A DNA stretch of 64,000 nt from a phage: sequence record PZ674596.1. One strand, 5' to 3'. The translations under genes and the position numbers were made by a program. The notes under the pieces are model-generated. The model saw only the letters and a list, made by a program, of their open reading frames with translations, had not been told where the DNA came from and searched no databases. Each line of letters opens with the position of its first letter. The stretch's first letter is position 1. Positions 12,112 to 63,368 of the stretch are shown here, piece after piece.

Positions 12112-12158
12112 ATGCAAACTGACTGCGGCACGTTCCGCAGTCATATTTCATAGTCGTC

Positions 12159-12691
12159 ACCGCTGACAGCATACACAATCAACTACCGCTGATAGCATAT
12201 CGAGAGTCTATCTCACCGCTCACAGCATACTTTACTCGATTTTTTACCGCTGACAGCATACTTAAGAAATTGCATGAATAATGTGTCCCGGTATGGGTAT
12301 AACCAGAACAAAATTACCGCTGGCAGCATACGAATGTCTGACATATACCATTAATTACCGCTGATAGCATATCCAAACAAAAATTCCTCAATAAAACACC
12401 GCTGACAGCATACGTTCTATCAGGGAGTAGCAGGCAATAAATGCCTTTCACTACAAGCAATCAGCGCAATAGCAATAGAATGTTAGTGAGCGCAAACCTA
12501 TATGGAATGCACTCTTCGAGGTTAGTAACCACTGGGGAGGTATGACAGAGCATTGAGTGGTGATAGATGATTTACCGCTCACAGCATACGTTCATCTCAC
12601 TATACCGCTGGTAGCATATCTTTAACCGTTCACAGCATACTTTTCAGAAAAATAGCCGCTGATAGCATACATTTCACCGCTGACAGCATAT
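12159..12691. repeat. iteron array: 12 direct copies of 16-bp ACCGCTGACAGCATAC (incA-like, downstream of repA)
   Basis: Copies start near 12159, 12185, 12215, 12246, 12316, 12357, 12398, 12574, 12604, 12625, 12655, 12676; all in one orientation, 1-2 mismatches each. Confidence 0.85.
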
Positions 12692-13785: not shown

Positions 13786-13805
13786 GTGGACACCTTTGTC
13801 ATTCA

Positions 13806-13907
13806 ACCGCTGACAGCATACTTGATTTGCCGCTGACAGAATACCAAAAACAGTTGGCAGCATACGGTGAACCGCTGACAGACTATCAATTACCGCTGAC
13901 AGCATAC
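13806..13907. repeat. upstream iterons (4 full + 1 half copy), incC/origin-like
   Basis: Same 16-bp iteron near 13806, 13829, 13871, 13892 plus half-site GGCAGCATAC near 13856. Confidence 0.75.
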
Positions 13908-30537: not shown

Positions 30538-30595
30538 AGCCTGCTTCTGTATATATAAATAACTACATATTAATTATTAATATACGGAAGCAGGC
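30538..30595. repeat. large AT-rich palindrome (copy 1 of 2)
   Basis: AGCCTGCTTCTGTATATATAAAT...ATATACGGAAGCAGGC; near-identical arms recur at 63197-63251. Confidence 0.7.
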
Positions 30596-47340: not shown

Positions 47341-48075
47341 ATGAAAAAGTTGAAAAGTTTAGAAATCCCTGGGACTGGTTATAAATTCTTTATGGACAAC
47401 GCGGAGTGTGCGCCTAACGCGTTGGAAAAAATACAAAGTCTTATCAACAGCCTTACTGAAGAAGCGAAAGAACTGAAGAGCGAGGCGACAAAGGACAATA
47501 CAGCTAAAATCCAATGCTTAAATCTCGTTTCTTATTGTTTATATCAAGTGTCCAAAACACTGATTAAAGGCAATATCTATTACGACGATGAAGACACCTC
47601 GACACCTGAAGAAAAAGATAGCGATGAAGAACTCTATGAAGATATCTCTACCAGTGCGGGTCACGCTGCCTTCGATGCTATGGGTGAATCGTCAGGCATC
47701 AGATCGTTTGTTGAACAGAACAATTCGACAATAATGATTGAGTACTGTGAACAAACAAGCTCCAAGGCCATACATGTTCTTCACGATGTTGCTGCAGGGG
47801 TTCGCTGTGAGGCTGAAGCGGTCAGAAAAGATGTATTTGGTGCAGACAGTAATACCGTGAAAGCGTTCATCAACAGTGCTCTGCTAAATTCTTACTCAAA
47901 CCTTATCGTCAATGCGGCACTATGCGCAAATTCAGGTGAAGAACACATTGTCATAACTGAAACCAAACATGAGCATCAACAGTCACCAACCATAGAAGAG
48001 GTAACTGCATTGGCTATCAAACAGGCGAGTGAAATTAGTGATGAAATTCTCTCTCTGCTAAACAAAACTATGTAA
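47341..48075 (+). CDS. hypothetical protein
   Basis: 244 aa; acidic central region. Confidence 0.5.
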   Translation: MKKLKSLEIPGTGYKFFMDNAECAPNALEKIQSLINSLTEEAKELKSEATKDNTAKIQCLNLVSYCLYQVSKTLIKGNIYYDDEDTSTPEEKDSDEELYEDISTSAGHAAFDAMGESSGIRSFVEQNNSTIMIEYCEQTSSKAIHVLHDVAAGVRCEAEAVRKDVFGADSNTVKAFINSALLNSYSNLIVNAALCANSGEEHIVITETKHEHQQSPTIEEVTALAIKQASEISDEILSLLNKTM

Positions 48076-48189
48076 AACATTGATAATGGCGGTCAAAATT
48101 TGATTCTTTTCTATAAGAATCCGTTGATCGCCACTACTCCCCTTCCATACCTGCAATCATACCCTTAAATATCAATAGGTTATGGTTGT

Positions 48190-48935
48190 TTATACAAATA
48201 AGAAAACAACTAAATAACAGATCAACGAAACGTCAACGCTTTCACCCGATTTGGTCTAAAAAATTGACGTTTTCACACATCACTTCTTATACCCGTAACT
48301 CTACGCAGCAGACAGCGCCACAGCGTCCAATTTTCACCACAGACGACCCAACACACTACCAACAAAAACACACGCTCAAAATCGCTCCCGTTGCGTTACA
48401 CAACCATATAAACAACTTATTTTCAGGCATAACAAAACAACTAAATAACACACATGCCATTCCCAAAAACAACCAACCTCTTTATGGCAGGCTACCGAAA
48501 AGACCCACCTCTTCTCCCCAGGCTACCGGACAACCAACCTAACTTTCACAGGCAATCCGAAAACATTCATACGCGCGATACCCACGACACGCCATTCCCC
48601 AAACAGCGAAGAAACACCAGAATCACTGAAACCCCAACGAAGCCTGTAACCGCAAGGATTCTCTCAATCCCAAAAGACACGAAACAGAACAATCACGGGA
48701 AACGCCATTACCCAATACACGAATAACTACAAAAGCCTTTCACACACTCCAGACAAACAACTCAAACACAATAACGAAAGGAATCGCCCACCTGCCATTA
48801 CTCCATACACGGAGAAGAACAATCACCAAAACGACGAGAACACCCCATAGAAGAACCACCGCAAAACGAACGAAACCACATACACCGACAGAGAAAACAG
48901 CACACCCAATTCACCAACAGAAATAGTCGCCGTAT
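48190..48935 (+). repeat. G-depleted A/C-rich low-complexity tract with dispersed direct repeats
   Basis: ~750 bp with almost no G on plus strand; 17-mer AAAACAACTAAATAACA twice (near 48199 and 48434); GCCATT(C/A)C(C/T)C-type repeats near 48456, 48591, 48704, 48794. Confidence 0.7.
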
Positions 48936-49127
48936 AGAACATTCTGGAAGGAGTGAGCATTAACGCCTATAGAGAGGTTGAGACAGATAAAACACAACAT
49001 GTATAGCGAAGAAGCCAGGTATGTATAAGTGGGGAGGGAAGGAGGGGTGTCGCCTCCTTTTTCGTATTTATTCAACTCCTGATTTTATCCCCCGTAACAC
49101 CCCTACGGTCAGCCTTCGGTCCATACA

Positions 49128-51425: not shown

Positions 51426-51775
51426 ATATGGGCGATTTCAAGAAACGCCTGAAGGAAAGAGCCGAGATGGTCAGAAAGCAAAACGCCTCTTCTGTCATCA
51501 GATACGCAAGGCAGTTTAGTCGCAACAACAAATCAGTTGAGGAAAAGATCCTTAGCGTAATCGTGCGATAATTATTAAGGCCACCAGCATTGGTGGTCTT
51601 AAATGACCATCCTGTTTCCCTCAGGCTAATAACACCAACCTCTTACCTCCAGGCAACCGACAAACCCACCTGTTCCCGTCCGGCTACCGCAACTTTCCAC
51701 TTTGACGCCTTATTCGTACAACGATAATTAACGCCAACAAGAAAACAATTTGTTATTTACGATAAGGAATTAATC

Positions 51776-52258
51776 ATGAATTTTATCGCTACTGTAAACG
51801 CACCCGCACATGGCAATATCGCTGTAACGTTCTCTGACATTGAAAAACGAGTACTTGGTGCATGGCGCGACAATGAGACGGTAGAACTGTCAGCACAAGA
51901 AAAATGCATTATTGCACGCGACATCATTGGCAATCGTCGTTACTCGAGGGTATTTGAGAAAGCATATGTGGTAAATTCTGGATTCGGAACGTTCGTCTTT
52001 CCGGTGCGCTCCGGGCGATTCTGCCAGTCCAAGCTGATTGAGTTCGCTACGCAGATTTCTTTCTGGATTAAAACTCAATCGTCGTTCAAATTTTCCGACG
52101 ATGAAGCAGTATCGCAGGGGATGCGGATCGCCAACAATGCGATTAAATGCAAAAACATTACGTATACCGCTGGCGTTGATACATGGAAACTGTTTTGCGC
52201 TAACTTTATGCTGAATGTATACGCAAGCAACCGCATCCACATCCTTGATGGCGTGTAA
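51776..52258 (+). CDS. hypothetical protein
   Basis: 160 aa; ATG after AAGGAATTAATC. Confidence 0.5.
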   Translation: MNFIATVNAPAHGNIAVTFSDIEKRVLGAWRDNETVELSAQEKCIIARDIIGNRRYSRVFEKAYVVNSGFGTFVFPVRSGRFCQSKLIEFATQISFWIKTQSSFKFSDDEAVSQGMRIANNAIKCKNITYTAGVDTWKLFCANFMLNVYASNRIHILDGV

Positions 52259-52267
52259 CTGAGAAGA

Positions 52268-52288
52268 GGGCCAGAAACGGCCCTTTAT
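52268..52288 (+). terminator. Rho-independent terminator
   Basis: GGGCC-agaaac-GGCCC followed by TTTAT. Confidence 0.6.
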
Positions 52289-52511
52289 CTATAGCCACCA
52301 GCTGCCGCAGGGAAATTTTCAGAAGCGGCGAGGAACGTATTCATGAGCCGACGGGGGAACGGCCAGGATTTTTTCGGGAAACGGCTGCATTCGCCTTTGT
52401 GTAGAAAAAACATCGGGAAGCTGGTGGAATCCAACCAGCGGTTGTCGGACAGGTGAGCGGGGAAAATTATGATGACTTTCGTCACCTGAGACATCCAGAT
52501 TTCTTTCGTAG

Positions 52512-52557
52512 CATAATCACATACGTGATTAAGTGGTGTGATTAAGTGAAAAATCAC
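52512..52557. promoter_or_regulatory. two adjacent operator-like palindromes (GTGATTA / TAATCAC family)
   Basis: TAATCAC-atac-GTGATTA and GTGATT-aagtgaaa-AATCAC, with direct repeat GTGATTAAGTG x2. Confidence 0.45.
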
Positions 52558-52804
52558 GCGCACATAATACGCGAGCGGATACAGAACAAAACAAAATACC
52601 GATCCGCACCGACAAATAAGCGCGGATCACATAGCAAGACTAAAAGCCAATGATTAACCATACTCTATAGCGCAATATAACGCGTTTTAAGCGCGTTAAT
52701 GTGTTAAGTAATGGGCATGTACTGGTAAGGATATAAAAGCGCGTCTATGGCGTTATTTTGGCGCTTATTTTTATGTTGTTGGAGTGAGTTAAAGACAATA
52801 AAAA

Positions 52805-52871
52805 ACGCGCCATCAATGGCGCGTTATTGTGGAAGTATTGGAAACGAAAAAAGCGCCCATAGTGGGCGCTC
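52805..52871 (-). terminator. tandem hairpin terminators downstream of minus-strand island genes
   Basis: AACGCGCCAT-ca-ATGGCGCGTT and AGCGCCCA-tag-TGGGCGCT, each with A-run on plus strand (T-run on minus); second hairpin recurs near 53347. Confidence 0.55.
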
Positions 52872-52875
52872 GATT

Positions 52876-53106
52876 TTATTTGTGTAAACTGATTTTAAAT
52901 CCCATTTCTACGAACGCTTTTAACATTAAAAATATATCAGCGTCGTTCACGTCTGCTTTTTTTCGCTCCTGGTCGCTCAATAAGTCAATTTTGCGCGTCG
53001 TTTCATCTATAAGCTCGACTGCGCGCCCAGCGTAACCAGCGATCCCAGCGATGCGATTAACATAATATTCATTATGGACGTTAACGCCAGCGATAAGAAC
53101 AAACAT
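52876..53106 (-). CDS. small hypothetical protein
   Basis: 76 aa; RBS AAGGAG 6 nt upstream of ATG. Confidence 0.45.
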   Translation of the reverse strand: MFVLIAGVNVHNEYYVNRIAGIAGYAGRAVELIDETTRKIDLLSDQERKKADVNDADIFLMLKAFVEMGFKISLHK

Positions 53107-53126
53107 GATTAAGCTCCTTAAAAAAA

Positions 53127-53330
53127 TTAAATAGAATTTTGAAGTTTTCCGATTAATGCGCTTAAACGTAAGTATTCACGTTTGCGCTTGCAATCTCGCT
53201 TGCTGTTAAGCAAATCAGAAAACGTAAAATTTAATTGGTCGCGTTGCGCGATCAAATCATCGATTAATTCCAGTTTATAAGCGCGATACTTTGCGCGATA
53301 TTCTGCGCGGATCTTGTCATAGCTGACCAT
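53127..53330 (-). CDS. small basic hypothetical protein
   Basis: 67 aa from ATG 53330 with RBS AAAGGAG; table N-terminal extension covers a hairpin. Confidence 0.4.
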   Translation of the reverse strand: MVSYDKIRAEYRAKYRAYKLELIDDLIAQRDQLNFTFSDLLNSKRDCKRKREYLRLSALIGKLQNSI

Positions 53331-53378
53331 TTTTAAAGCTCCTTTAAAGCGCCCATAGTGGGCGCTTGATTCCATTAA

Positions 53379-54029
53379 TTACGCTTTGAAAGCATCAGCT
53401 AAATAATTGTAGAAATCATTTTTAATGAAGCGATATTGCTGAGTACCAGCTTTTGCGCTCCCAGCTCCTTTGACTTTCTCAACAAGTCCGAGACGTTCGC
53501 AAAGATTGATCAACTGGTTGGCTTGAGTATAGCCAGCGTCCAATTTAATTTCGCACGCTTTTTTAGCTTCATTCATTAAATCGAAAACAGCGCCATTAGT
53601 GAACGTGTCGATCTCGTCGTTAATCATATCGATTAAAGCGAATACACGAGATCCTGACATATCAGCGACGGAATAAACGCATTTACCAGCTTTAATGGAT
53701 TTAACCAGATAAACCAGTTTTTCCAGTGAATAACTATTAGTCATTGCATCACGGAAAAATACTTCTGGCGCTTGTTTGCTTGCTTTAATCGCATAGTAGA
53801 AAACAGAGCATAATTTTTCGTCTTCAACAGCGTTTACAACGTTGTTGATGAAGTAAGCAAGTTTAGTGGTAGCAGCTTGCATATTTGCTTTATCTGCTTT
53901 GGTGTGCGTACCATTTTTATAATGTTCGTTATATGTTTGAGTTGCCAGATCTGCTTTTTCTTTTAATTCATTTGTTACAACACGCGCAGCTTCAACGATG
54001 GATTTTTTAGATAAGATAATATTGGTCAT
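53379..54029 (-). CDS. hypothetical protein
   Basis: 216 aa from ATG 54029 with RBS AGGAA; low-GC coding region. Confidence 0.5.
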   Translation of the reverse strand: MTNIILSKKSIVEAARVVTNELKEKADLATQTYNEHYKNGTHTKADKANMQAATTKLAYFINNVVNAVEDEKLCSVFYYAIKASKQAPEVFFRDAMTNSYSLEKLVYLVKSIKAGKCVYSVADMSGSRVFALIDMINDEIDTFTNGAVFDLMNEAKKACEIKLDAGYTQANQLINLCERLGLVEKVKGAGSAKAGTQQYRFIKNDFYNYLADAFKA

Positions 54030-54322
54030 GGTTTTATTCCTTACAAAAATTAAAATGAATTTATTTTTTACTGTCGTTAGCCAGTTCGCTTTCGACGAGT
54101 TCAATTATCGATACGCAAAAAAAGATTGCAAGTGTTTTTTTTAGTTTTTTGCAGGGACGAAAGTCCTAGAAATAAAAGCGAGATCGTCGAAGGTGTTCCC
54201 TAAATAAATAATTAATTCCGGCTTATAACCTTATATGTTTATACGGAGTAGAATTGGAGGTGTATTTAATAAATGGCATTTAAAAAAATAACCGGACTTA
54301 GCCGGTTATTACCCTTATACAT

Positions 54323-54619
54323 TTATCGGACTGATTCTACAGCCTTACGATTGGTGTCAAATAACGCATCAACGAACTGCACAGAAGAGTTGTTCGATTC
54401 ACATGGTTCATAATTTTCCACTTGTTCACATAGTTGAGCGGTCTTACCAATGTTTATCCCTAATTTTACAGCTGCTGAAAGTTTAAACATGCAAACTGGT
54501 ACATTCTGAGACGTTGAGCATACGTCATTCATCAGCGACTGAATAATTGCGATATCATCCTTTGCATTGGCCGAAATTGAGTAAACTAAAAATAAAGATG
54601 TCAATAGTATCGATTTCAT
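54323..54619 (-). CDS. small secreted Cys-rich protein
   Basis: 98 aa; signal peptide MKSILLTSLFLVYSISANA; six Cys in mature part. Confidence 0.5.
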   Translation of the reverse strand: MKSILLTSLFLVYSISANAKDDIAIIQSLMNDVCSTSQNVPVCMFKLSAAVKLGINIGKTAQLCEQVENYEPCESNNSSVQFVDALFDTNRKAVESVR

Positions 54620-54622
54620 AAC

Positions 54623-55144
54623 TCAAAACGGTAAAATTCGTTCAACCCAATCGAAGAATACAAGTGTTTTTCTGCCGTCTTCTAACTTAAGAGTGACCTG
54701 GCAAGCATCAACGCCTCTTGATATCCCTTCTATTTCACGACCGTCTGCCATGTAGACCCTTATAGATTTGCCGTTTTGGTAAGCCTGACGACATATCTTA
54801 AAAAAGTCACGACGTGATGGCTGATTGTCAACATAGTCTGGATGTATTGTTAGCCTACCTTTGAACTCGCGAGCAATGCCATCGATTACACCTGATTCAA
54901 TTGTGCTAATGCGCTCAAGTGGGAGTCTTATACGATTTTCTTTATCATATGGAAGCGGGCATAAATCTAGCTTATTGCGGGAAGGCATTGTCCCCTGAAC
55001 GTACATGCAAAACACCTGACCGTCTTCAAGCGTGACTCTTACAGGAATGTTGTTTTTCCGCCAGAACATAAGTATGTTTTCAGCATGTTCGTAGTCTCGT
55101 GGCCAGACTTCTGCTGGAATGCCGTAGGTGATGTCTTTAACCAT
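54623..55144 (-). CDS. hypothetical protein with internal tandem repeat of ~80-aa domain (weak Sm/Hfq-like signature)
   Basis: 173 aa; halves share R..N.IPVRVTLEDGQV / GKSIRVYMADGREIEG pattern; ends 3 nt before the secreted-protein gene. Confidence 0.45.
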   Translation of the reverse strand: MVKDITYGIPAEVWPRDYEHAENILMFWRKNNIPVRVTLEDGQVFCMYVQGTMPSRNKLDLCPLPYDKENRIRLPLERISTIESGVIDGIAREFKGRLTIHPDYVDNQPSRRDFFKICRQAYQNGKSIRVYMADGREIEGISRGVDACQVTLKLEDGRKTLVFFDWVERILPF

Positions 55145-55246
55145 AGTCTACCTTTTTAAGTCTTTTTTGGTCATTATATACATCTCTATGATGCGTAGAC
55201 AGACTAACCGTACATTCCAACAAAAATTGATTATGGAACAAGTTTC

Positions 55247-56047
55247 ATGAAGAATGGGGTGAATAAAAAATACTCATTAGCATTGTTAATAGCGGCTTTA
55301 CTATTAACAGGTTGTGATTCTGATGAAGAGCGAGCCATAAATCTGGTCGAGAAGGATATTCGCTCTACACTGCTAGATCCTGATGCTGGTCGGTTCACGA
55401 ATATGCGAGCTATTCAGTTAGGTGAAAATAGCTATTCATATATGGTATGTGGAGAGGTGAATGGCAAAAACGTCTTGAACGCCTATACAGGTGCGACCGC
55501 ATTCAATGCACACATCTTTGATGTTCGTGAACGTAACCCGATTGTATTCGTTGCAATGGATAAAAATACCAACTCGGCAAGAGAACGATTACGTTTTGAA
55601 CGCCAAAATCTAGCATGTAAAGAAAATGGTGTGAAACTTTATCTGGAAAACGAATCTAATATCAGGAAGGAAAAAGAGAAAATAGATGATTTAAAAAAAA
55701 CTCCATTAGGTCAGGCTGTGTTTGATGCTGCAAGTGATTCGACATATGTGAGTAGAGAGTTGGGCGAATCGAGAGGTGTTAGTGAAGTGTATGCAAGAGA
55801 AAATGATAAATATGCTCTTGTTAGCGTCACCAATTATGACACTCCTGACTTTTACAAATTTAGGAAAAAAGATAACGGTGAACTAGAACCTGTTAGAGGA
55901 CTGTCTTACACCGGCTATCCATTCGCGGTTACACTGTGCCATTCTGAACAAACAGATTATGACAAATGCATAACAGAAGAAGAAATCAAGTTGCTTCGAG
56001 ACGAAAAGAATAAGCTGGATGATTTTGTCGTGCCACCAGAAGAATAA
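55247..56047 (+). CDS. lipoprotein of unknown function
   Basis: 266 aa; signal peptide with lipobox LLTGC; only plus-strand gene in the low-GC island. Confidence 0.55.
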   Translation: MKNGVNKKYSLALLIAALLLTGCDSDEERAINLVEKDIRSTLLDPDAGRFTNMRAIQLGENSYSYMVCGEVNGKNVLNAYTGATAFNAHIFDVRERNPIVFVAMDKNTNSARERLRFERQNLACKENGVKLYLENESNIRKEKEKIDDLKKTPLGQAVFDAASDSTYVSRELGESRGVSEVYARENDKYALVSVTNYDTPDFYKFRKKDNGELEPVRGLSYTGYPFAVTLCHSEQTDYDKCITEEEIKLLRDEKNKLDDFVVPPEE

Positions 56048-56106
56048 CATATACAAAATATTTAATTGCTGTTAACATTTAATCGTTCAGACATAGGGAA
56101 AGTCCT

Positions 56107-56144
56107 ATGCCCTCGACAAATCTTTCTGGTATTGTCGAGGGCAT
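56107..56144. terminator. bidirectional hairpin between convergent genes
   Basis: ATGCCCTCGACAA...TTGTCGAGGGCAT inverted repeat. Confidence 0.6.
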
Positions 56145-56169
56145 GTTTCACATTTATAGGTAGATAGCG

Positions 56170-57303
56170 TTAATTGGCGTTTTCGTTCTTCTCTTTTTTG
56201 CTAATTTCATCACATGCAAGGTTCATTATGTCTATGTTTTCTTGTTTTTGAAGGTTGCCGACAATTTTTTGGCGCAATTCATAAAATCGCTCGCGTGGTA
56301 TAGCTTCCTTGTTGCCGCTGATGTGAAGTATTGCGTGACAGCTAGGGCAGACGGCAATCAGATCTGTTTTTGGGTTCACGCTTCGTGCACCTTCGCCTTG
56401 TGAAAGTGGGATGATGTGGTGAGCGTGTAGCAGCGTTTTCGTTTCTTTACCGTCAATTTCCTTGCCGTATATTTCCGACATCGTTCTGCAACATAGTTGA
56501 CACCTGTAGTCTGCGTTTGCCAGAACGTCATTCCTTAACCCGGATACGCGGCTACGATGTTGCGACTGGATTAATCTTGTTTCGCCCTCTATATATTCCT
56601 CAACTTCTTCTTTCTGGAGGTCGTAGCTGATTTCTTCTTGAGTTACGTTGTCTTCTGCTTTGGCTGAGACTGCATGAATCTCTTTCTTATTCAACGAGAA
56701 AGGTGATTTGAGAGCATCAGCACTGTTTTGCCCTCTTGAATGTTGTGATTTTAGAGCAAGATTGTAAATCTCTTTTAATTTGACATTTTTTTTGTTTGTT
56801 CTAAAGAACTTTCTGCTCTCTACTTGTGAGATAATCCCTGATTCTATATATTGAATTAACACACGAAGAAAATGTTCTATAGATTTTTTACTTTTGAATG
56901 AAAAGGAATAGCCGACTTTCTTTCTCAACTCGTTTTCGCTAAAGAACTCTTTCAGATTTTCGTCGTCAGTCAGGTTAATGGTTGCACCTGCCCAGGTTGA
57001 AGCTTCTACAATTTCAGGAATAACCTCTTGGTCGCCAAGCTGATTGTTTATTTCATCCAGCATTTTAAAGACTGTCAATATTGGATACGGATTCGTCACC
57101 AGACCGTTAGAGGATTTCGTTCTAGGCCCATTCTTTTTTATAATGATGGGGTGCTGTTGAGAAGTTTTCTTTAATTGTAAATAATAAAGGTTTATATTAT
57201 TATTCGTTGATATACCTGCCGGTTTTATCAAGGATAATTTTTCATCACATGCAATATCATCTATTATATTTCTTAGGTCACACGTTTTTATAAATTGACG
57301 CAT
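56170..57303 (-). CDS. HNH-nuclease-domain protein with unknown N-terminal domain
   Basis: 377 aa; C-terminal CQLCC...HAHHIIPLS...CPSCH HNH signature; low GC; RBS GGAGGA lies in a CCTCCGAA/TTCGGAGG hairpin. Confidence 0.6.
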   Translation of the reverse strand: MRQFIKTCDLRNIIDDIACDEKLSLIKPAGISTNNNINLYYLQLKKTSQQHPIIIKKNGPRTKSSNGLVTNPYPILTVFKMLDEINNQLGDQEVIPEIVEASTWAGATINLTDDENLKEFFSENELRKKVGYSFSFKSKKSIEHFLRVLIQYIESGIISQVESRKFFRTNKKNVKLKEIYNLALKSQHSRGQNSADALKSPFSLNKKEIHAVSAKAEDNVTQEEISYDLQKEEVEEYIEGETRLIQSQHRSRVSGLRNDVLANADYRCQLCCRTMSEIYGKEIDGKETKTLLHAHHIIPLSQGEGARSVNPKTDLIAVCPSCHAILHISGNKEAIPRERFYELRQKIVGNLQKQENIDIMNLACDEISKKEKNENAN

Positions 57304-57443
57304 ATATCCTCCGAATTTCTTCGGAGGCGGAGCCTACAAATATCGTTCAGCCAATCAAGAAATTTTTTCAGCCGGAGGTGTACATTTCAAAAAATGTGAC
57401 GAATGTCACATGCAGGTGCTCTCATACACCTGCATGTAGACTA

Positions 57444-58010
57444 TTAATCATTCAATAATCTATATTTTCTTTTGATTAAATCTTCACCTTTTTTGGTGAA
57501 CACAAAACCAAATTGCGATTTTTTGTTTAGACGAAGGACTCTGTTATCCAACGCATCGGTTGATGGAATCAATGTTTGATCATCTATCCAATTAAGTAGC
57601 GTAAGAAAGTTCAGCAGCCTCAACGTTGTTGTGCGAAGCTCTTTCGATATATTTTCAATGCTGGCAATTCGTCTTTCTTTTTTCTCAGGTGGTACAGATA
57701 ATTGTTCTTGAGGTTTCGTGGATAGATAATCAATTTCGTTTGCTGCATCGAATGATATGTGTGGCGTAATTTTGCTAAAAAAGCCTTTCGCTGACTCACT
57801 TGATAATAAACCAGACCTATTCATATCGTTTGTTATTCTGTACAGGAGTGGACTGTGTTTCATTTCAGGATAACGTTGATAAAAGTTAAGCAATTCAAAA
57901 GCAGCATTAGCGCCAACAAGAAAATCAGAAGGATCGCTGACTTTCCAGAAAGAATGATTTTTCTTAGCGCCAGTGGTGTCAACAAATGATAATTCTTTTA
58001 ACCAACTCAT
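57444..58010 (-). CDS. hypothetical protein
   Basis: 188 aa from ATG 58010 with RBS AAGGAG; inverted repeat GATGTGCTC-N13-GAGCACATC overlaps the RBS. Confidence 0.45.
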   Translation of the reverse strand: MSWLKELSFVDTTGAKKNHSFWKVSDPSDFLVGANAAFELLNFYQRYPEMKHSPLLYRITNDMNRSGLLSSESAKGFFSKITPHISFDAANEIDYLSTKPQEQLSVPPEKKERRIASIENISKELRTTTLRLLNFLTLLNWIDDQTLIPSTDALDNRVLRLNKKSQFGFVFTKKGEDLIKRKYRLLND

Positions 58011-58075
58011 GATGTGCTCCTTTCTAACAAGTGAGCACATCATAGAATTAGTAGATAGGGGGTAAATATGAAATG

Positions 58076-58354
58076 TTACGGCAACCTGCTCAGTATTTCC
58101 TCTAAATCTTTTTTTGTCATATTGGAGTTTTCATAGATGCGCATGATTTTCTCACGCGTCTTAGCGGAAACCCCAACGGCAGATGTGACTTTGTCAAATT
58201 CAGCCATAGTCATCGTCTCCAGAATGGCATTGATAACTTCAGCCTTAGACATCTTGATTTTTTTCTCTTTGAGTTTTATTTGAAATTTTCCAAGTTTTTC
58301 ATTGGCCTTATCAGACAATGCCACTTGGCAATAAGTTGTTTTTTTTTCGCTCAT
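58076..58354 (-). CDS. small hypothetical protein
   Basis: 92 aa, Lys-rich; starts 2 nt after helicase stop. Confidence 0.4.
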   Translation of the reverse strand: MSEKKTTYCQVALSDKANEKLGKFQIKLKEKKIKMSKAEVINAILETMTMAEFDKVTSAVGVSAKTREKIMRIYENSNMTKKDLEEILSRLP

Positions 58355-58356
58355 AA

Positions 58357-59916
58357 CTAATCTCGTTTCAGAATTCCAAAATCGAATGCGCCATCAACAG
58401 GCAATACACCTTCCGCAAAGCCAGGTGTGGTGTCGATGATGTGTTTTCGCTCATAAGAGTGAGACAACAGGTATTTGTTGCTAGTGTCAATGAAATCAGT
58501 GATAAAACACACGTTTGCCTGATTCTTCTTGGCTCGTAAGCCACGACCGACACGCTGCCTCATTTCAACTTCTGCTTTCCCACCACCAGCCAGAATGACC
58601 GCACCAACGCTTGGCACATCAACACCGACATCCAGAATAGTCGAGCCTATTAAAACATCTATGTCGCCAGACGCTAAACTGTTCAGCTTTGCTTGCCTTG
58701 TCGACTGGTTCGATTCCCCATAAATGAAGTCAACTCTAAGGCCGGACTCTTTCATCATTTCCATCAGGATTTGCCCGTGGCGTTTAAGACGAACCAGAGT
58801 CATACAATTGAGAGAATGTTGCTTATAGAGCAATGCTTCGCGAACAATGGCCTCATTACGTCCCAAATTATACACGATCCCCAACTGATAAGCCTTTTGG
58901 TAGGCAGTGCTCATACCTACTCTAAAATTGAGGTATTTGTTGGCAAGTTCTGCCTTGATTCTGGCCTCGTCCGGCTTGTAGGCAACTTTATGATAAAGGA
59001 AGTATGGTTTTGCCAGAATGCCTCTATCAATCAGGTACTTTTCTGTGACTTTAATTTCAATTCGCCCGGCCACCGCCATCAGGCGCATGTTGGCTTCCGT
59101 CGAATCCTTCATGAACGGCGTGGCTGTAAGCGCCAGACGATAGTCTGCGTTCACACATAATCTGGCGATGTCATAGAAATTTGAGCCTGAAGACTCATGC
59201 GCCTCTTCCAGAATAAGAAGAGAGACACTTGAAAGGAAGCGTTTCACCAACTCCCGACGTTTGAGGTGGTAGCTTTTCTTATCTGGTGTTGCATCGCGTG
59301 GTGGTTCTTCGAGGAAACTTGCAAGAGTTTGAACTGTAGCGACGTTGATATGTCGTGATACCTGGAACTCACCCGAGCCAATGACTCCAACCTTTTGGTC
59401 CTTTAACCACGGTTCGCCATTTTCGGCGCGGTAGTCGATGGATCTCTGGAAGTTTTCGGCCATTTGAAACATCAGAACAGAGCGGGTTGTTAAAAATAAT
59501 GTCATTCGACCGATACGTGCAGCTGCTTTGCAGGCAACGTTAGATTTCCCACCACCAGTAGCGATCTGGGCAATCATCATTCCCTCGCGAACTAGTGTTT
59601 CCACAGCCTGATCCTGATATGCATAATCAGGATTGTATGGGAATGGGTTAACCGCCGGATTTGGCTTTCCAAGCGCCGGGGCTTTGTCTTTGCGGATATG
59701 AACACATTTGATGCCCGCCTTGTTCAAGTTCGCCGCTACAGGCTTGGCAAAGCCAGCAGGGAACGAGTTTTTACTCCAGTTGAACATCGTGCTTGTGCCC
59801 TTCCAGTCGCCAGTCTCGACTTCGTAGCTCAACATTTGCTGCACCAGTTGCTTTACCTTGTCATCTGCGCCAGAAATAAGCGCATTTACTGCGTTAGATA
59901 CAATCCGAACAGTCAT
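58357..59916 (-). CDS. SF2 helicase (UvsW-like, tentative)
   Basis: 519 aa; motif I ATGGGKS, motif II ILEEAHE, motif III TATP, motif VI QRVGRGLR; N-terminal region loosely resembles UvsW N-domain. Confidence 0.65.
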   Translation of the reverse strand: MTVRIVSNAVNALISGADDKVKQLVQQMLSYEVETGDWKGTSTMFNWSKNSFPAGFAKPVAANLNKAGIKCVHIRKDKAPALGKPNPAVNPFPYNPDYAYQDQAVETLVREGMMIAQIATGGGKSNVACKAAARIGRMTLFLTTRSVLMFQMAENFQRSIDYRAENGEPWLKDQKVGVIGSGEFQVSRHINVATVQTLASFLEEPPRDATPDKKSYHLKRRELVKRFLSSVSLLILEEAHESSGSNFYDIARLCVNADYRLALTATPFMKDSTEANMRLMAVAGRIEIKVTEKYLIDRGILAKPYFLYHKVAYKPDEARIKAELANKYLNFRVGMSTAYQKAYQLGIVYNLGRNEAIVREALLYKQHSLNCMTLVRLKRHGQILMEMMKESGLRVDFIYGESNQSTRQAKLNSLASGDIDVLIGSTILDVGVDVPSVGAVILAGGGKAEVEMRQRVGRGLRAKKNQANVCFITDFIDTSNKYLLSHSYERKHIIDTTPGFAEGVLPVDGAFDFGILKRD

Positions 59917-59998
59917 AAACCTCTTTCCTTAGTGCCTTTTGTATGTTATTTGGCTATTATAATAAGTAAGTGATTACTTAGTGGATTGTAGCAATAAA

Positions 59999-60679
59999 AT
60001 GGATGTAAAAATCACGATTTTGCAGGTTGATGTTGCCAACCTTCGCCCGAATACCTGGAACACCAATTCGGTTGGTGCGCAGAATTTTGAAAAACTGAAA
60101 GGTTCTATCGAAAAATTGGGCTTTTTTAAGCCAATTTTGGCTCGTGAACTTGAAGATGGATTTTTTGAAATCCTCGGCGGCGAACATCGCTGGCGTGCTG
60201 CTATTGAGCAAGGAATTTCAACGGTTCCGGTGCTTTCTGTGGGCAAAATTAGCGATGTCGTAGCTAAACAGATGTCACTGGTGGACAACGAGCGATACGG
60301 TGAAGACGACCAAATCGCATTGCAACGCTTCATTGAAGAAATTCAGTCAGAACTTGACTATCAACTGTCTGAAATCGCCCCGTATGACGACGAAATCTCG
60401 ATGGTTTTAGCAAAAGAGGCGGCAATCGACCTTGAAGCACTGGAGGCGTTGTCTCGTGGTAGTGATGAGCCTGTCGATACCGACAAACGAGAGAAAACCG
60501 AACGTGTGGGTGCGGAACATCAGACCATGCGCTTCAAAGTAACTTTCGATGCGTCAGATCGTGTTGCAGAAACCATAAAAAACATCATCAAAGAGCAGGC
60601 TATTAACACCGGTAATGAAATGGAGAACGCTGGTGAGGCTCTGGTGTGGCTGGTCGACTACTACAAGGAGCGTATGTAA
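59999..60679 (+). CDS. ParB N-terminal-domain (ParB/Srx-like) protein 1
   Basis: GGEHRWRAA ParB box-II-like motif; start uncertain (ATG 59999 or GTG 59981). Confidence 0.5.
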   Translation: MDVKITILQVDVANLRPNTWNTNSVGAQNFEKLKGSIEKLGFFKPILARELEDGFFEILGGEHRWRAAIEQGISTVPVLSVGKISDVVAKQMSLVDNERYGEDDQIALQRFIEEIQSELDYQLSEIAPYDDEISMVLAKEAAIDLEALEALSRGSDEPVDTDKREKTERVGAEHQTMRFKVTFDASDRVAETIKNIIKEQAINTGNEMENAGEALVWLVDYYKERM

Positions 60680-61347
60680 TGACCAAAAAGTTTGAAATCG
60701 TATATCGCGACCCGGCAGATCTTATTCCCTATGAGATGAATGCCAAAAAGCATGATGAACAGCAGATCCGAGATCTGGCCGCAGCCATTAAAAAGCGCGG
60801 ATTTGACCAGCCAATTACGGTCGATAAGAACGACGTAATTATTACTGGCCACGGCCGCCGTGAGGCTGCAATTTTTGCTGGACTTGAGCGCGTACCGGTT
60901 ATTGTTCGCGATGATCTCAGTGATGACGAGGTTCGTGCGAAGCGCCTTGAAGATAACCGACTTGCCAGCATTGATTACGATGCAATTAAGCTACAGAAAG
61001 AGCTTGAGTCGCTTGTTCTGGACGATATCGAGGTTTTCGGCTTTGAAGAGCGTGAGTTGAATGTTCTCGTTGGCAGTATGACAGAAGAAATGGACACCGA
61101 TTCGCTAGTTATCGATCTTGGCGAAGAAACTAAACGACAGAAGGATGAACACACCGAGATCAGTCGTGAAGTTGCAGCGGAAGAAGTACGTGTTGTCGAC
61201 GTATTGGGCTTTAAAACGCTCCCTGCTGGCTCTGCCATTGTTGTTGGTGATTTGCTTGCCCACATGGAAGAAATGACGGGAGAAAGCGGGGTAGACGCAT
61301 TTGTGGCATATGCGGAGAAGATCTCTTCCGGGGAGATGGCTGCATGA
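60679..61347 (+). CDS. ParB N-terminal-domain (ParB/Srx-like) protein 2
   Basis: 222 aa from ATG overlapping upstream stop; ITGHGRREAA motif; acidic C-terminal half. Confidence 0.5.
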   Translation: MTKKFEIVYRDPADLIPYEMNAKKHDEQQIRDLAAAIKKRGFDQPITVDKNDVIITGHGRREAAIFAGLERVPVIVRDDLSDDEVRAKRLEDNRLASIDYDAIKLQKELESLVLDDIEVFGFEERELNVLVGSMTEEMDTDSLVIDLGEETKRQKDEHTEISREVAAEEVRVVDVLGFKTLPAGSAIVVGDLLAHMEEMTGESGVDAFVAYAEKISSGEMAA

Positions 61348-62009
61348 GCAAATACATCATCAACGTATCGTTTCAGACACGCGTAAATAAAACCACGCGC
61401 ACGTTGGAAATCGCTGAGTCGTTCGGGCTTGGCCTGGACGAAAAAGAGTGGACGCTTTACGACAATCTGGAGCTGGAAGTGAAGCAGGGCGATGTGGTGT
61501 ACATCACCGGCCAATCCGGTTCTGGCAAATCCGTTGTGCTGCGCGAGTTGCAACGCCAGATGAAGGATGAAGGGCTTTCTGTAGCCTCCATCGATGATTT
61601 TACCTTCGATAATGAGGTTAACGTCATCGATCAGTTGGGCAAAACGACCAGTGATGCGCTTGGGTTGTTATCTATGGCTGGTCTGAACGATGCATATCTG
61701 TTTGTTCGCAAGCCTTCTGAAATGTCAGACGGCCAGAAATATCGTCTCAAGATTGCCAAACTGATTGAGTCAGGCGCTAAAGTGTGGGCTGCTGACGAGT
61801 TCGGCGCTGTTCTCGACCGTGTAACCGCTCAGGTTGTGGCGTCTAACCTCCAGCGTGCCGCTCGAAAGGTTGGTGCGACGGTAATGGTGGCGACGACTCA
61901 CGAAGACCTGAAGAACGCGCTGCGCCCGGATATGCAGATCACCAAGCACTACAAAGAACGCGTGAAGGTGGAATATCACAATGGTAGTCACGATGAGGTC
62001 CATTCATGA
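61344..62009 (+). CDS. soluble ABC-type ATPase
   Basis: 221 aa; Walker A GQSGSGKS, signature-like SDGQKYRL, Walker B VWAADEF, H-loop TTHED; no membrane domain. Confidence 0.55.
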   Translation: MSKYIINVSFQTRVNKTTRTLEIAESFGLGLDEKEWTLYDNLELEVKQGDVVYITGQSGSGKSVVLRELQRQMKDEGLSVASIDDFTFDNEVNVIDQLGKTTSDALGLLSMAGLNDAYLFVRKPSEMSDGQKYRLKIAKLIESGAKVWAADEFGAVLDRVTAQVVASNLQRAARKVGATVMVATTHEDLKNALRPDMQITKHYKERVKVEYHNGSHDEVHS

Positions 62010-62896
62010 CGGACATCATCATTAAACGCTACCGCCCTGAAGAGTTTCCGCGTCATCTGGACTTTCTGGAGCGAATGACTGTTACAAAGGGAACTGTAGA
62101 GGACTGGCACGCTCTTAAGTCGCTTCACTACAAAACAGACGGCAAACCTTTCGCGCCAACTTACTATCGCTGCGAACTTGATGACCGTCTGGTGGGCGTC
62201 GTGGTTATGGCTTACCCGAAACTACTGTTGGCACCTCGCCACCGCATGTTTCCTAAGTTGAAACCAACCACTAATACCACCGTGGCTAACCAGTACTGGG
62301 GTCGGTACGTGAATAACAACTTTGCGGTGATCAGTCGCTCAGTTGTGGATACTCAGTATCGTGGCGTAGGCGTCTCTTATCGAATGATTAACCTGGTTAG
62401 CAGGATGCATGACCGGCCAATCATTGAGATCCAGTCCTCGATGAGCAAATACAATCCCTTCGCCATGAAAGCAGGGTTTAAGTTCATCCGCCCTGAGCGA
62501 CCGAAGAGCTATGAAAGTGCACTGCGTGTATTCCAGCGCCATTTCCGTTCTGACCCGGGTAATAACGAGGCGATCGTCAAAGAGTTGTTCGCAATGAGCG
62601 AGTCTCGTCGTCGCCGTGCACTGCGTGATCTGGTGGCGGACTACCACAAGAACAGTTCCCTGGCAAAAGCTGGGCGGAATCGTGGCACGACGATTCAGGA
62701 CATTGCCGACAGTCTGGTGGACGAGGCCAGCATTGTGAAGCTGCTCAAGGACATTCACAACCTGAGCTTTACGTCTCCGTTGTATGGTGTGTACCGAAAC
62801 CCTGACTTTGGCCGTCGACTGCCTGACACGCTGCCACTGCTGGCATTCGACAAACAACCTTTGGATAAACCGTTAGAAATTGCTTTACCGGCATAA
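62006..62896 (+). CDS. hypothetical protein (possible GNAT-like fold)
   Basis: 296 aa; RSVVDTQYRGVGVSYRMINLV resembles acetyl-CoA-binding motif; overlaps ATPase stop. Confidence 0.4.
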   Translation: MTDIIIKRYRPEEFPRHLDFLERMTVTKGTVEDWHALKSLHYKTDGKPFAPTYYRCELDDRLVGVVVMAYPKLLLAPRHRMFPKLKPTTNTTVANQYWGRYVNNNFAVISRSVVDTQYRGVGVSYRMINLVSRMHDRPIIEIQSSMSKYNPFAMKAGFKFIRPERPKSYESALRVFQRHFRSDPGNNEAIVKELFAMSESRRRRALRDLVADYHKNSSLAKAGRNRGTTIQDIADSLVDEASIVKLLKDIHNLSFTSPLYGVYRNPDFGRRLPDTLPLLAFDKQPLDKPLEIALPA

Positions 62897-62905
62897 GGAT
62901 TTGCC

Positions 62906-63172
62906 ATGACGTTAACCGACAAACAAAAGGACATCATCAAAACGCTCAATCTCGGTTATGAGCGAGGTCATCTACTTGATCTGGACGAATTGCTTGAAGT
63001 TTTGCCGTACAAGACAACAAAGCAAAGTATCCAGTTCTCAATTCGCGCTCTGATAAAAAAGGGGCTGGTGGAGAAAGGGCATACGCGCCAACGCAGTGAC
63101 AATCGCTATCACCGCCGGACTCTTGGGTTAACCACTTTAGGTCGAGCCAAAGCGAAGTTACTGGTGATGTAA
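62906..63172 (+). CDS. small basic protein, possible winged-helix DNA-binding
   Basis: 88 aa; helix-turn-wing-like segment; last gene of operon. Confidence 0.4.
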   Translation: MTLTDKQKDIIKTLNLGYERGHLLDLDELLEVLPYKTTKQSIQFSIRALIKKGLVEKGHTRQRSDNRYHRRTLGLTTLGRAKAKLLVM

Positions 63173-63196
63173 TCGGTCTGGGAGCTTATTTAAAGA

Positions 63197-63251
63197 CCTG
63201 CTTCTGTATATATAAATAATAAGTAACTTATTAAATATATACGGAAGCAGG
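63197..63251. repeat. large AT-rich palindrome (copy 2 of 2)
   Basis: CCTGCTTCTGTATATATAAATAATAAGTAACTTATTAAATATATACGGAAGCAGG; centre is ATAAGT-A-ACTTAT. Confidence 0.7.
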
Positions 63252-63368
63252 CTTAGTAAGACATGCCCAGACCTAATTAAACACCCCAGAAAACAAGTTG
63301 GTTAGCATACGCAGTAAACAAGTTGTTTTAGAGCGCATGGACGCGCTCTGTGTGTTTTAGAGGGATCT

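Follow-up and report, generated by a model that had tools for sequence, protein, structure and literature searches.

A low-GC sector of an SSU5/pHCM2/pMT1-type phage-plasmid as a probable mosaic of accessory ('moron') genes with proposed surface-remodelling and nuclease roles

The stretch of DNA analysed here (64,000 nucleotides; 'the window') is an E. coli phage-plasmid of the SSU5/pHCM2/pMT1 type, whose nearest relatives are Cyrano and pLF82. At positions 52560-58050 its GC content is 0.384, compared with 0.466±0.012 in same-size, non-overlapping segments elsewhere; since the minimum among the latter is 0.437, this is the lowest-GC 5.5 kb in the 64 kb. Mean GC3 is likewise reduced, being 0.377 for the nine genes of the region and 0.479 for 50 other genes (Mann-Whitney p=5e-5), and computation of windowed GC and GC3 thus bears out a preliminary description of the locus as AT-richer than its flanks. 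The same description had the segment transcribed opposite to most of the element, which holds for eight of the nine genes, located on the minus strand (elsewhere, 46 genes are on the plus and 4 on the minus strand), but not for the lipoprotein gene at 55247-56047, which is on the plus strand. The phage-wide palindrome AAAACAAnTTGTTTT (18 sites observed, 0.76 expected) is indeed missing from the region, no copy occurring in 51757-63289; given that a 5.5-kb gap has a probability of about 0.2 at this density, the absence is a weak point. The 'hairpin array' proposed as the left boundary is present at 52557-52871 and turns out to be a stack of terminator-like hairpins, each with GC-stem and T-run (52871-52851, 52825-52804, 52629-52600 and 52573-52557), for the minus-strand operon. 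It is located in a 600-bp convergent intergenic region (52260-52875) for which no Rfam family was found and which also contains two tandem copies of GTGATTAAGTG (52525-52548). On the right, the helicase gene does flank the segment; the low-GC tract continues to about 58450 and takes in a 92-aa gene.

The region is divided into at least five separately terminated transcription units, that is, (i) the helicase, 92-aa and 188-aa genes, (ii) the HNH nuclease gene alone, (iii) the oppositely oriented lipoprotein gene, (iv) the fljA-like gene together with the gene of a 98-aa periplasmic protein, and (v) the 216-, 67- and 76-aa genes. The unit boundaries are predicted terminator-like hairpins, and promoters are represented by consensus matches only. 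Besides the left stack at 52557-52871, these hairpins comprise one that would close the fljA-98aa unit (54287-54310, minus strand), a GC-rich, likely bidirectional terminator between the convergent lipoprotein and HNH genes (56109-56142), and two hairpins with a T-run at the end of the helicase-92aa-188aa unit (57394-57436, minus strand). Family-core genes (FljA-like, 216-aa and 92-aa) are interleaved with two cargo slots, in which lineages differ by the replacement, domain swapping or deletion of exported proteins and a nuclease; the cargo genes are those of the 266-aa lipoprotein, the 98-aa periplasmic Cys protein, the 188-aa ORFan and the HNH nuclease. Among the plasmids of PLSDB, the FljA-like gene is found in 831, the 98-aa gene in 246 (at 48-100% identity), the 188-aa gene in 178, the lipoprotein gene in 61 and the HNH gene in 1, and distributions differing this widely indicate that the genes do not travel together. 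The components named in the preliminary description, an HNH protein, a lipoprotein (LLTGC), a secreted four-Cys protein and small proteins, are all present. A 173-aa FljA homologue (PF03614, E=3e-82) had been overlooked there; apart from FljA and the HNH domain, no protein matches a characterised family.

Unit (v), on the minus strand, starts with the 216-aa family-core protein (53379-54029, ORF extending to 54104; phrog_1513), which shares 81-86% identity with its counterparts in Klebsiella, Yersinia and Salmonella relatives (dN/dS 0.06-0.11). There follow a basic, probably coiled-coil protein of 67 residues (53127-53330, ORF extending to 53375), the gene of which is missing in Cyrano, and, as the last gene of the operon, that of a 76-aa protein (52876-53106; phrog_1585). 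The label 'metal ion transporter' attached to phrog_6145, which the 67-aa protein matches, is implausible for a soluble protein of this size. Expression is taken from Cyrano, a 95%-identical relative for which values are available as log2(FPKM+5) from growing and intramacrophage lysogens (PMC9928086, S1 Table). While most genes have values of roughly 3-5 on this scale, the 216-aa gene (CYRAN_113) is silent, near the floor, and the 76-aa gene (CYRAN_112) is at the detection floor (PMC9928086).

The FljA-like protein of unit (iv) (173 residues; 54623-55144, minus strand) matches Pfam family PF03614 (Flag1_repress) over its full length, with 274.9 bits against a cut-off of 24 and residues 4-170 aligned to profile positions 1-170 of 170; it also matches phrog_1444 (5e-99), and its C-terminal half yields weak Hfq/LSM matches. 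Its gene is core to the whole SSU5/pHCM2/pMT1 phage-plasmid family. The locus lacks the co-transcribed alternative flagellin gene and the switchable promoter of an fljBA-type locus, the neighbours being the lipoprotein and 98-aa genes; consistently, no flagellin or invertase family was matched (Pfam) among ten proteins scanned in or beside the region, and no such gene is annotated within several kb in eight relatives. The 102 bp between the divergent fljA-like and lipoprotein genes (55145-55246) may constitute their control region. In Cyrano lysogens the FljA-like transcript (6.9-8.1) is among the most abundant, and that of the lipoprotein (7.9-9.4) ranks second or third among CYRAN_74-123 (PMC9928086); both genes are missing from the list of a published moron screen (LB overnight, 5x cut-off).

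The 266-aa lipoprotein (55247-56047, plus strand) occupies what we call slot A. It has a lipobox (LLLTG/C, residues 19-23) with a Cys that is invariant in eight homologues, and its predicted structure shows two cystatin/NTF2-like domains with a helical hairpin between them (pLDDT 86). According to the Lol-avoidance rule, Asp at position +2 retains a lipoprotein in the inner membrane, and the Asp found there in the E. coli alleles predicts such retention. Slot A always encodes an exported protein adjoining the fljA-like gene, drawn from three families across lineages: a 140-154-aa lipoprotein (phrog_890) in pMT1, pHCM2, E. coli pS2 and K. pneumoniae, the 266-aa lipoprotein in the window, and a secreted protein of 196 or 118 residues in Klebsiella types. 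Searches of Pfam, annotated PHROGs, PDB and BFVD, by sequence or fold, returned no Llp/Cor match for the lipoprotein. In slot B, the 98-aa protein (54323-54619, minus strand; phrog_9536) carries a Sec signal with cleavage after ANA and four Cys residues; the segment 54326-54624 is missing in Cyrano and in pPK8276.

The HNH nuclease (377 residues; 56170-57303, minus strand) combines a hypervariable, recognition-type N-terminal domain (residues 1 to about 220) with a near-invariant C-terminal zinc-HNH domain (about 223-377); a linker of roughly 60 residues is of low confidence in the model. The catalytic and zinc residues expected of an McrA-type nuclease (CxxC...HH...N...CxxCH; C268/C271, H295-H296, N310, C319/C322-H323 and H327) are invariant in 5/5 family clusters. 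The domain matches PF01844 (3e-6), PADLOC HNH (2e-5) and mREase_IV PDLC03656 (3e-5), and its best relative of solved structure is EcoKMcrA (6GHC, E=6e-4). As for a solitary nuclease, no methyltransferase was matched among the ten proteins of the 52.9-59.9 kb run, nor is one annotated within several kb in relatives. The N-domain, whose only relatives are standalone phage proteins of 160-190 residues (phrog_31250, 29155 and 25050), belongs to a swapped cassette of 686 bp (56644-57329, minus strand) which includes 26 bp upstream of the gene and is 50% identical in nucleotide sequence to the L006 allele, against 97-98% in both flanks; within the gene, the N-half is 37% (aa) and 50% (nt) and the C-half 98% (nt) identical. 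On these grounds the protein is most likely an McrA-like, modification-dependent (Type IV-like) nuclease. The defence-like character suspected in the preliminary description is thus retained for one gene, which appears to be the only credible defence candidate in the region and one that is being lost. A 15-bp direct repeat, TTTCATCACATGCAA, is present at 56205-56219 and 57240-57254 (plus strand), and recombination between the two copies produces the in-frame deletion of 1035 bp that most relatives carry, in which codons 1-21 and the last 11 codons are fused. The gene is deleted in about 98% of relatives: among 5,426 complete E. coli genomes, the 188-aa gene occurs in 87 and the HNH body in only 2. 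The HNH gene has its own promoter-like site (a consensus match), and a hairpin formed by CCUCCGAA and UUCGGAGG (57308-57327, minus strand; dG -16.8 kcal/mol, z -2.2) would sequester its Shine-Dalgarno sequence.

The 188-aa ORFan (57444-58010, minus strand, ORF extending to 58043; phrog_13473) is located just upstream in every examined locus with HNH, an HNH scar or a standalone N-domain homologue. Next to it, the basic, 92-aa family-core protein (58076-58354, minus strand) is encoded directly downstream of the gene of a DEAD/DEAH (UvsW-like) helicase (58357-59916, minus strand), which is of normal GC content and lies outside the cargo. The 92-aa gene is probably co-transcribed with the helicase gene; in Cyrano lysogens its transcript level is high, at 12x background.

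Taken together, these findings lead us to propose, with a probability of roughly 0.55, that the 52.5-58.4 kb tract is an AT-rich accessory ('moron') sector of the phage-plasmid, a mosaic rather than a single system, with proposed surface-remodelling and nuclease roles. In its best reading it is a lysogenic-conversion or exclusion moron cluster accompanied by a decaying Type IV-like nuclease, functions that we infer. Features of morons are (i) the terminators, (ii) the atypical GC3, (iii) the dispensability of the lipoprotein, 98-aa and HNH genes, and (iv) the lysogen transcripts of the lipoprotein and FljA-like genes, the promoters being consensus matches; the preliminary description was right in that a compositionally distinct region contains genuine presence/absence cargo. 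The lysogen would then make the FljA-like protein, a putative RNA-binding repressor, together with the neighbouring exported proteins and so remodel its cell surface. In flagellated hosts the former may block flagellin translation, and the membrane-anchored lipoprotein and the disulfide-bonded 98-aa periplasmic protein could keep out other phages or toxins that target the envelope. The N-domain of the HNH protein would pick a target for the zinc-HNH domain to cut, the hairpin over the Shine-Dalgarno sequence would probably damp translation, and the gene is being lost, nearly all relatives being left with a 32-codon in-frame scar.

The strongest competitor, which we regard as a possible if clearly less probable account, has the FljA-like protein act as the element's own post-transcriptional RNA-binding regulator (of lytic, copy-number or envelope genes) rather than as a repressor of host flagellin, and the low-GC sector as mainly a regulatory module. 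Klebsiella and Y. pestis make no flagella; LF82, the host of Cyrano, is flagellated. The protein is full-length in 822 of the 831 plasmids, 341 of Klebsiella and 62 of Y. pestis (pMT1/pFra) included, and it is equally conserved in the plasmids of both, with dN/dS values of 0.05-0.24, a range that applies within Klebsiella-associated lineages too. Since the gene is thus kept in non-flagellated hosts, flagellin repression cannot be its family-wide role, and its purifying selection there argues that blocking the translation of fliC mRNA is not its sole role. The lack of an adjacent flagellin gene, transcription in lysogens, the weak Hfq/LSM matches and the minimal layout in relatives, a same-strand run of helicase, 92-aa, lipoprotein and fljA genes with 4 bases between the last two, point in the same direction. 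However, the full-length match to the flagellin-repressor family is very strong (275 bits), most hosts of the family are flagellated (E. coli, Salmonella, Enterobacter, Citrobacter and Cronobacter), no target RNA has been identified on the element, and such a role would not preclude flagellin repression where the host is flagellated.

It is rather unlikely that the HNH gene is instead a selfish, free-standing homing endonuclease in the last stage of a life cycle of invasion, fixation, decay and loss, in a region otherwise composed of regulatory and conversion genes. Like phage-borne enzymes of this kind, it has an HNH domain and is intergenic and sporadic (2 of the 87 E. coli carriers), with a fixed position in several lineages, a predominance of deletion derivatives and matches to phage HNH endonuclease PHROGs (1e-7 to 1e-5). 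However, the 'empty' alleles are products of in-frame deletion within the gene itself rather than clean target sites, and a homing element would be expected at higher frequency. The domain order is reversed, with the nuclease C-terminal to a variable domain as in McrA-type enzymes, and no NUMOD, IENR or HTH module was matched in Pfam at E≤0.1. Moreover, the N-domain occurs standalone at the same slot in Klebsiella plasmids, and the gene comes with its own promoter-like site and with a hairpin that covers its Shine-Dalgarno sequence.

More speculative still is the twofold proposal that (i) the 188-aa ORFan and an 'N-domain (± HNH)' gene make up a defence module of two genes, hitherto undescribed and confined to SSU5-like phage-plasmids, with a sensor that is cassette-exchanged and also exists without the nuclease, and (ii) the FljA family, which to our knowledge is known only for repressing flagellin mRNA, acts across about 800 phage-plasmids as a general, flagella-independent RNA-binding regulator of element or host envelope genes. 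We consider it improbable that the region is ordinary early or replication-associated backbone with a low GC content due to mutational or silencing bias: the helicase and ParB genes are its neighbours, conservation of the 216-aa and 92-aa genes matches that of backbone genes, and the 216-aa and 76-aa genes are lysogen-silent, as lytic genes are, but several genes are polymorphic and plainly dispensable, three have exported products, lysogens transcribe the FljA-like and lipoprotein genes, and GC3 departs sharply from that of the adjacent helicase gene (0.33-0.44 versus 0.49). A PADLOC-DB v2 search of each protein, a check put forward in the preliminary description, revealed no known defence system in the region or in the slot cargo of relatives, returning weak HNH-domain hits, generic hits on the flanking helicase and nothing for the other seven proteins. 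The idea advanced there, if read as a single undescribed anti-phage or superinfection-exclusion system of several genes that spans the segment and is carried on a discrete, recently and horizontally acquired island, is least probable of all: low GC, atypical codon use, absence of the operator motif, the co-occurrence of a nuclease with envelope proteins and presence/absence polymorphism of several genes speak for it, but the separately terminated units with one gene on the opposite strand, the disparate distributions, a family-wide backbone (FljA-like, 216-aa and 92-aa genes) under purifying selection, silence of the 216-aa and 76-aa genes in lysogens, loss of HNH from nearly all relatives and the PADLOC result speak against it.

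The mosaic accessory sector favoured here has parallels among known systems. Salmonella FljA (the phase-1 flagellin repressor of fljBA) and the FlkB/FljA-like fliC repressors of E. coli share full-length PF03614 and a similar size with the FljA-like protein; the phage-plasmid gene, however, is an orphan with neither an adjacent flagellin gene nor a hin-type invertible promoter, and is core to a family that also lives in non-flagellated hosts. Like the superinfection-exclusion lipoproteins known from temperate and T5-like phages (Llp of T5; Cor of phi80, N15 and HK022), the lipoprotein is a small, phage-encoded envelope lipoprotein expressed from a prophage at a locus where non-homologous exported proteins substitute between lineages, although it is larger (266 aa, two domains) and its gene adjoins fljA-like rather than receptor-binding tail genes. 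The HNH protein is longer than EcoKMcrA, the Type IV modification-dependent restriction endonuclease of the e14 prophage (377 versus 277 residues, with the low-confidence linker), and no resemblance of its N-domain to that of McrA could be detected in sequence or structure; both, however, are single polypeptides in which a recognition domain, putative in the HNH protein, precedes a C-terminal zinc-HNH (ββα-Me) domain, and both are prophage-borne, devoid of a partner methyltransferase and equipped with their own terminator and promoter (a promoter-like site in the case of HNH), and the mREase_IV model is of McrA length. As to the region as a whole, it differs from the moron clusters and the defence or cargo hot spots of temperate phages in that its slots alternate with family-core genes and that none of the relatives examined has a recognised defence system there; with the moron clusters and hot spots of lambda (bor/lom) and P2/P4 it shares AT-rich genes with their own promoters and terminators between conserved genes, expression in the lysogen and rapid turnover at fixed slots.

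The low-GC sector at 52560-58050 is best described as a mosaic accessory region with two cargo slots, and there is good support for viewing it neither as one system nor as a recent island. Megablast matches of window positions 52-59 kb are SSU5-like phage-plasmids, including the Escherichia phages Cyrano (pLF82) and PhiR41_1, and extend to 782 PLSDB plasmids from Klebsiella, Escherichia, Enterobacter, Yersinia (pMT1/pFra) and Salmonella (pHCM2); the plasmid NZ_JBTZOT010000003, from a blood isolate, matches the window at 100% identity in both stretches that were compared (56220-57239 and 57444-58043). Judged by these matches, the element carrying the sector is a known, widespread type of phage-plasmid. 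SSU5/pHCM2/pMT1-like phage-plasmids are frequent in clinical E. coli, Klebsiella, Salmonella Typhi and Y. pestis (pMT1/pFra), and their counterparts of the sector genes are labelled hypothetical almost throughout in public records.

The preliminary description had portrayed 52560-58050 as AT-rich and transcribed from the minus strand. GC and GC3 values confirm the former: GC content is 0.384, the lowest in the 64-kb window (mean of non-overlapping windows of equal size, 0.466±0.012), and mean GC3 amounts to 0.377 for the nine island genes versus 0.479 for the 50 other genes (p=5e-5). The low-GC tract reaches ~58450 and takes in the gene for a 92-residue protein (58076-58354) which adjoins the helicase gene. 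The strand assignment holds for eight of the nine island genes, compared with 46 of 50 genes elsewhere lying on the plus strand, but not for the lipoprotein gene (55247-56047), the island's plus-strand gene. The hairpin array reported on the left is present as stacked hairpins with GC stems and T-runs in a 600-bp convergent intergenic region; the stack has no Rfam match, and a wider Rfam search of 50-61 kb and 47.8-49.8 kb yielded nothing above chance. The same intergenic region contains two tandem copies of GTGATTAAGTG followed by a GTGATT...AATCAC palindrome (52525-52548), which may represent a protein-binding site. It is likewise correct that the phage-wide motif is absent from the island, since the palindrome AAAACAAnTTGTTTT, found at 18 sites in the window where 0.76 are expected, does not occur in 51757-63289; a 5.5-kb gap at this site density is, however, not significant alone. 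The AAAACAAnTTGTTTT sites are intergenic and lie ahead of plus-strand operons (e.g., 33002, 46918, 46969, 50075, 50978, 51742, 63315), and the motif is a putative operator or promoter element of the phage-plasmid.

Further non-coding features were registered elsewhere in the window. Thirteen iterons with the core ACCGCTGACAGCATAC (12150-12700 and 13800-13907) flank and overlap the ends of a 404-aa ORF (12691-13905, minus strand), an arrangement that looks like the RepA/iteron origin from which the phage-plasmid replicates as a plasmid. The ~700 bp at 48250-48920 are non-coding, with a plus strand that is extremely rich in A and C and has little G or T (48001-49000: GC skew -0.35, AT skew +0.35), and contain no credible ORF, tandem repeat or Rfam match; they could give rise to a long transcript lacking structure, serve as a rut-like tract or be associated with an origin. 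At 30540-30595 and 63197-63252 lie two copies, 82% identical, of an AT-rich palindromic element of 56 nt that has CCTGCTTCTG...CGGAAGCAGG as its clamp.

Terminator-like hairpins (57394-57436, 56109-56142, 54287-54310 and 52557-52871) and gene orientation split the sector into five units: (i) the helicase gene (58357-59916) with the 92-aa and 188-aa genes (the latter at 57444-58010), (ii) the HNH gene (56170-57303), with a promoter-like site ahead of it and an 8-bp hairpin burying GGAGG (dG -16.8, z -2.2), (iii) the lipoprotein gene, on the plus strand and divergent from fljA, (iv) the fljA-like gene (54623-55144) and, separated by a 3-base gap, a 98-aa gene (54323-54619), and (v) the 216-aa (53379-54029), 67-aa (53127-53330) and 76-aa (52876-53106) genes. 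Such a layout is that of independent morons rather than of an operon-encoded system. Comparison of gene content with Cyrano, pPK8276, NZ_CP027369, pMT1/pFra, pHCM2, E. coli pS2 and plasmids of the K. pneumoniae and K. oxytoca types yields the minimal layout helicase-92aa-[small lipoprotein]-FljA-[gap]-216aa-67/75aa, with only two variable slots: slot A, flanked by the 92-aa gene and fljA, and slot B, directly downstream of fljA. Typical E. coli relatives and the window differ in exactly two segments, one holding the 98-aa gene (54326-54624) and the other the HNH gene body (56220-57239). Frequencies were obtained by tblastn against PLSDB records: the FljA-like protein is encoded in 831 (822 full length), the 98-aa protein in 246, the 188-aa protein in 178, the 266-aa lipoprotein in 61 and the HNH protein in 1. 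The 216-aa protein retains 81-86% identity across genera with dN/dS of 0.06-0.11, and the same comparison gives 0.08-0.10 for the FljA-like protein; the island's backbone therefore dates back as far as the family itself. The 67-aa gene (53124-53335 in the comparison) is missing in Cyrano and apparently also in NZ_JBTZOT010000003, and the 76-aa gene is missing in Klebsiella types, so that each is independently dispensable.

The notion that the sector encodes a coherent, undescribed system is thus not borne out: it comprises five units, its core genes are mixed with two slots, and PADLOC detects no system, whether among the nine island proteins, in the flanking helicase, in a neighbouring 160-aa protein or among seven proteins that relatives carry as cargo. 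As regards slot A, nonetheless, the advice to search the sector for genes of exclusion or defence is reasonable, and with the exchangeable cargo sites of the family now located, the slots can be mined for such genes.

The HNH protein is the sole nuclease of the sector and its sole PADLOC-positive protein (HNH 2e-5, mREase_IV 3e-5). Its HNH domain matches PF01844 (3e-6), the closest solved structure is EcoKMcrA 6GHC (6e-4), and NCBIfam offers nothing useful, its one match being a weak IscB HNH hit. The family is tiny: 5.8e9 proteins yield just five clusters at 90% identity, and all four clusters looked up reside at the same slot of SSU5-like elements. Across it the residues CxxC...HH...N...CxxCH are invariant and the first ~220 residues hypervariable. 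When aligned with the DNA of an E. coli relative carrying another allele (L006), the C-terminal half is 98.1% identical and the N-terminal half 50% (37% at the amino acid level); the exchanged segment, 56644-57329, has flanks of 97-98% identity and represents a clean cassette swap of the N-domain. An exhaustive single-sequence HMMER search with residues 1-200 against 1.84e9 proteins retrieved only the protein's own family and a 37-aa scar peptide, while profile matches connect the N-domain to standalone phage proteins of 160-190 residues (phrog_31250, 29155 and 25050). At the same slot, the K. pneumoniae relative NZ_CP040597 encodes a nuclease-less, standalone N-domain homologue (4684-5283, phrog_29155). 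The 188-aa and 196-aa neighbours lack BLASTP similarity to the N-domain and are ruled out as its homologues.

Relatives devoid of the HNH gene retain a 32-codon in-frame remnant, MRQFIKTCDLRNIVDDIACDE joined to ISKKEKNKNAN, and its junction is a 15-bp repeat which within the window occurs only at 56205-56219 and 57240-57254. Hence the relatives bear a 1035-bp deletion and the window bears no insertion. Among complete E. coli genomes, the 188-aa neighbour gene is found in 87 and the HNH body in 2. That the gene might instead encode a homing endonuclease is unlikely, because the apparent 'empty sites' are deletion scars and the domain order of the protein is reversed. Architecture, the lack of a methyltransferase and the exchange of the sensor domain favour a McrA-like Type IV nuclease, and the gene is probably a decaying, Type IV-like one. 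Recent insertion of the HNH gene into the window is ruled out, as the flanking alignment enters both ends of the ORF and relatives show the in-frame scar.

The fljA-like gene, overlooked in the preliminary description, encodes a full-length match to Pfam Flag1_repress (275 bits) and is an orphan: neither a flagellin nor an invertase gene lies close to it. As a core gene of the family it occurs, among others, in 341 Klebsiella and 62 Y. pestis plasmids; dN/dS of 0.05-0.24 within Klebsiella-associated lineages indicates purifying selection. Klebsiella and Y. pestis are non-flagellated, and conservation in such hosts implies that the conserved role of the protein is not repression of host fliC alone. 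A 'flagellin repressor' label on ~800 plasmids therefore cannot fit its role in non-flagellated hosts. The protein may regulate other targets by binding RNA, while retaining the capacity to silence flagellin when the host is E. coli or Salmonella. Literature searches turned up no paper that connects FljA or flagellin with SSU5 or pHCM2 phage-plasmids. What results is a testable question about a putative RNA-binding regulator transcribed in lysogeny and inside macrophages.

In every lineage compared, the neighbour of fljA encodes an exported protein, the family of which varies: pMT1, pHCM2, pS2 and K. pneumoniae have a 140-154-aa lipoprotein (phrog_890), this window has the 266-aa lipoprotein, and other Klebsiella types have a secreted protein of 196 or 118 residues. 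The shorter of these secreted proteins, encoded in NZ_CP040597 (5308-5664), resembles the first domain of the 266-aa lipoprotein. The model of this lipoprotein is good (pLDDT 86) and shows two cystatin/NTF2-like cones with a helical hairpin linking them. Asp at position +2 of its E. coli alleles predicts retention in the inner membrane; other alleles have Lys. A Sec signal and four conserved Cys residues characterise the 98-aa protein, whose identity drops to 48% across the family. Sequence searches of the PDB gave no relatives for the lipoprotein, the 216-aa protein or the 188-aa protein (the last searched as a single sequence and as a seven-sequence profile), and a Pfam search with the 188-aa alignment gave nothing. 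The basic 92-aa protein exhibits, by eye, a ribbon-helix-helix-like pattern, and no family match was obtained. Taken together, the exported and FljA-like products would remodel the cell surface, leading to lysogenic conversion or exclusion.

Published RNA-seq data for an LF82 lysogen bearing Cyrano, which is ~95% identical in the sector, allow one to assess expression (PMC9928086, S1 Table; values in log2(FPKM+5)). From LB overnight cultures to growing and intramacrophage lysogens, values rise from 4.7-5.0 to 7.9-9.4 for the lipoprotein, from 4.2 to 6.9-8.1 for the FljA-like protein, and from 6.3-7.2 to 8.6-9.9 for the 92-aa protein. Among CYRAN_74-123, the lipoprotein transcript takes second or third place when lysogens are growing or inside macrophages. 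The 216-aa and 76-aa transcripts are near the floor. The fljA-like and lipoprotein genes thus behave like lysogen-expressed cargo, and the 216-67-76 unit does not. The 92-aa gene is among the top-transcribed Cyrano genes in lysogens (12x background), and alone of the sector genes passes the published 5x moron cut-off in LB overnight cultures (PMC9928086). A toxin-antitoxin pair formed by the 67-aa and 76-aa proteins is ruled out, as neither has a family match, the 76-aa gene, Cyrano's sole member, is silent in lysogens, and the 67-aa gene is gone from Cyrano and the 76-aa gene from Klebsiella types.

The kinds of component found in the sector are already known, namely a moron cluster, a McrA-like nuclease, a FljA homologue and a prophage lipoprotein, and on present evidence they make up no new kind of system; the genes themselves are in public records, all as hypothetical proteins. 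What is new is (i) an HNH nuclease whose N-domain swaps as a cassette and also stands alone, (ii) the near-universal loss of this nuclease by a defined repeat-mediated deletion, the gene being a compact case of sensor-domain cassette exchange followed by short-repeat deletion, and (iii) a member of the FljA family that is fixed in a phage-plasmid family whatever the flagellation of the host.
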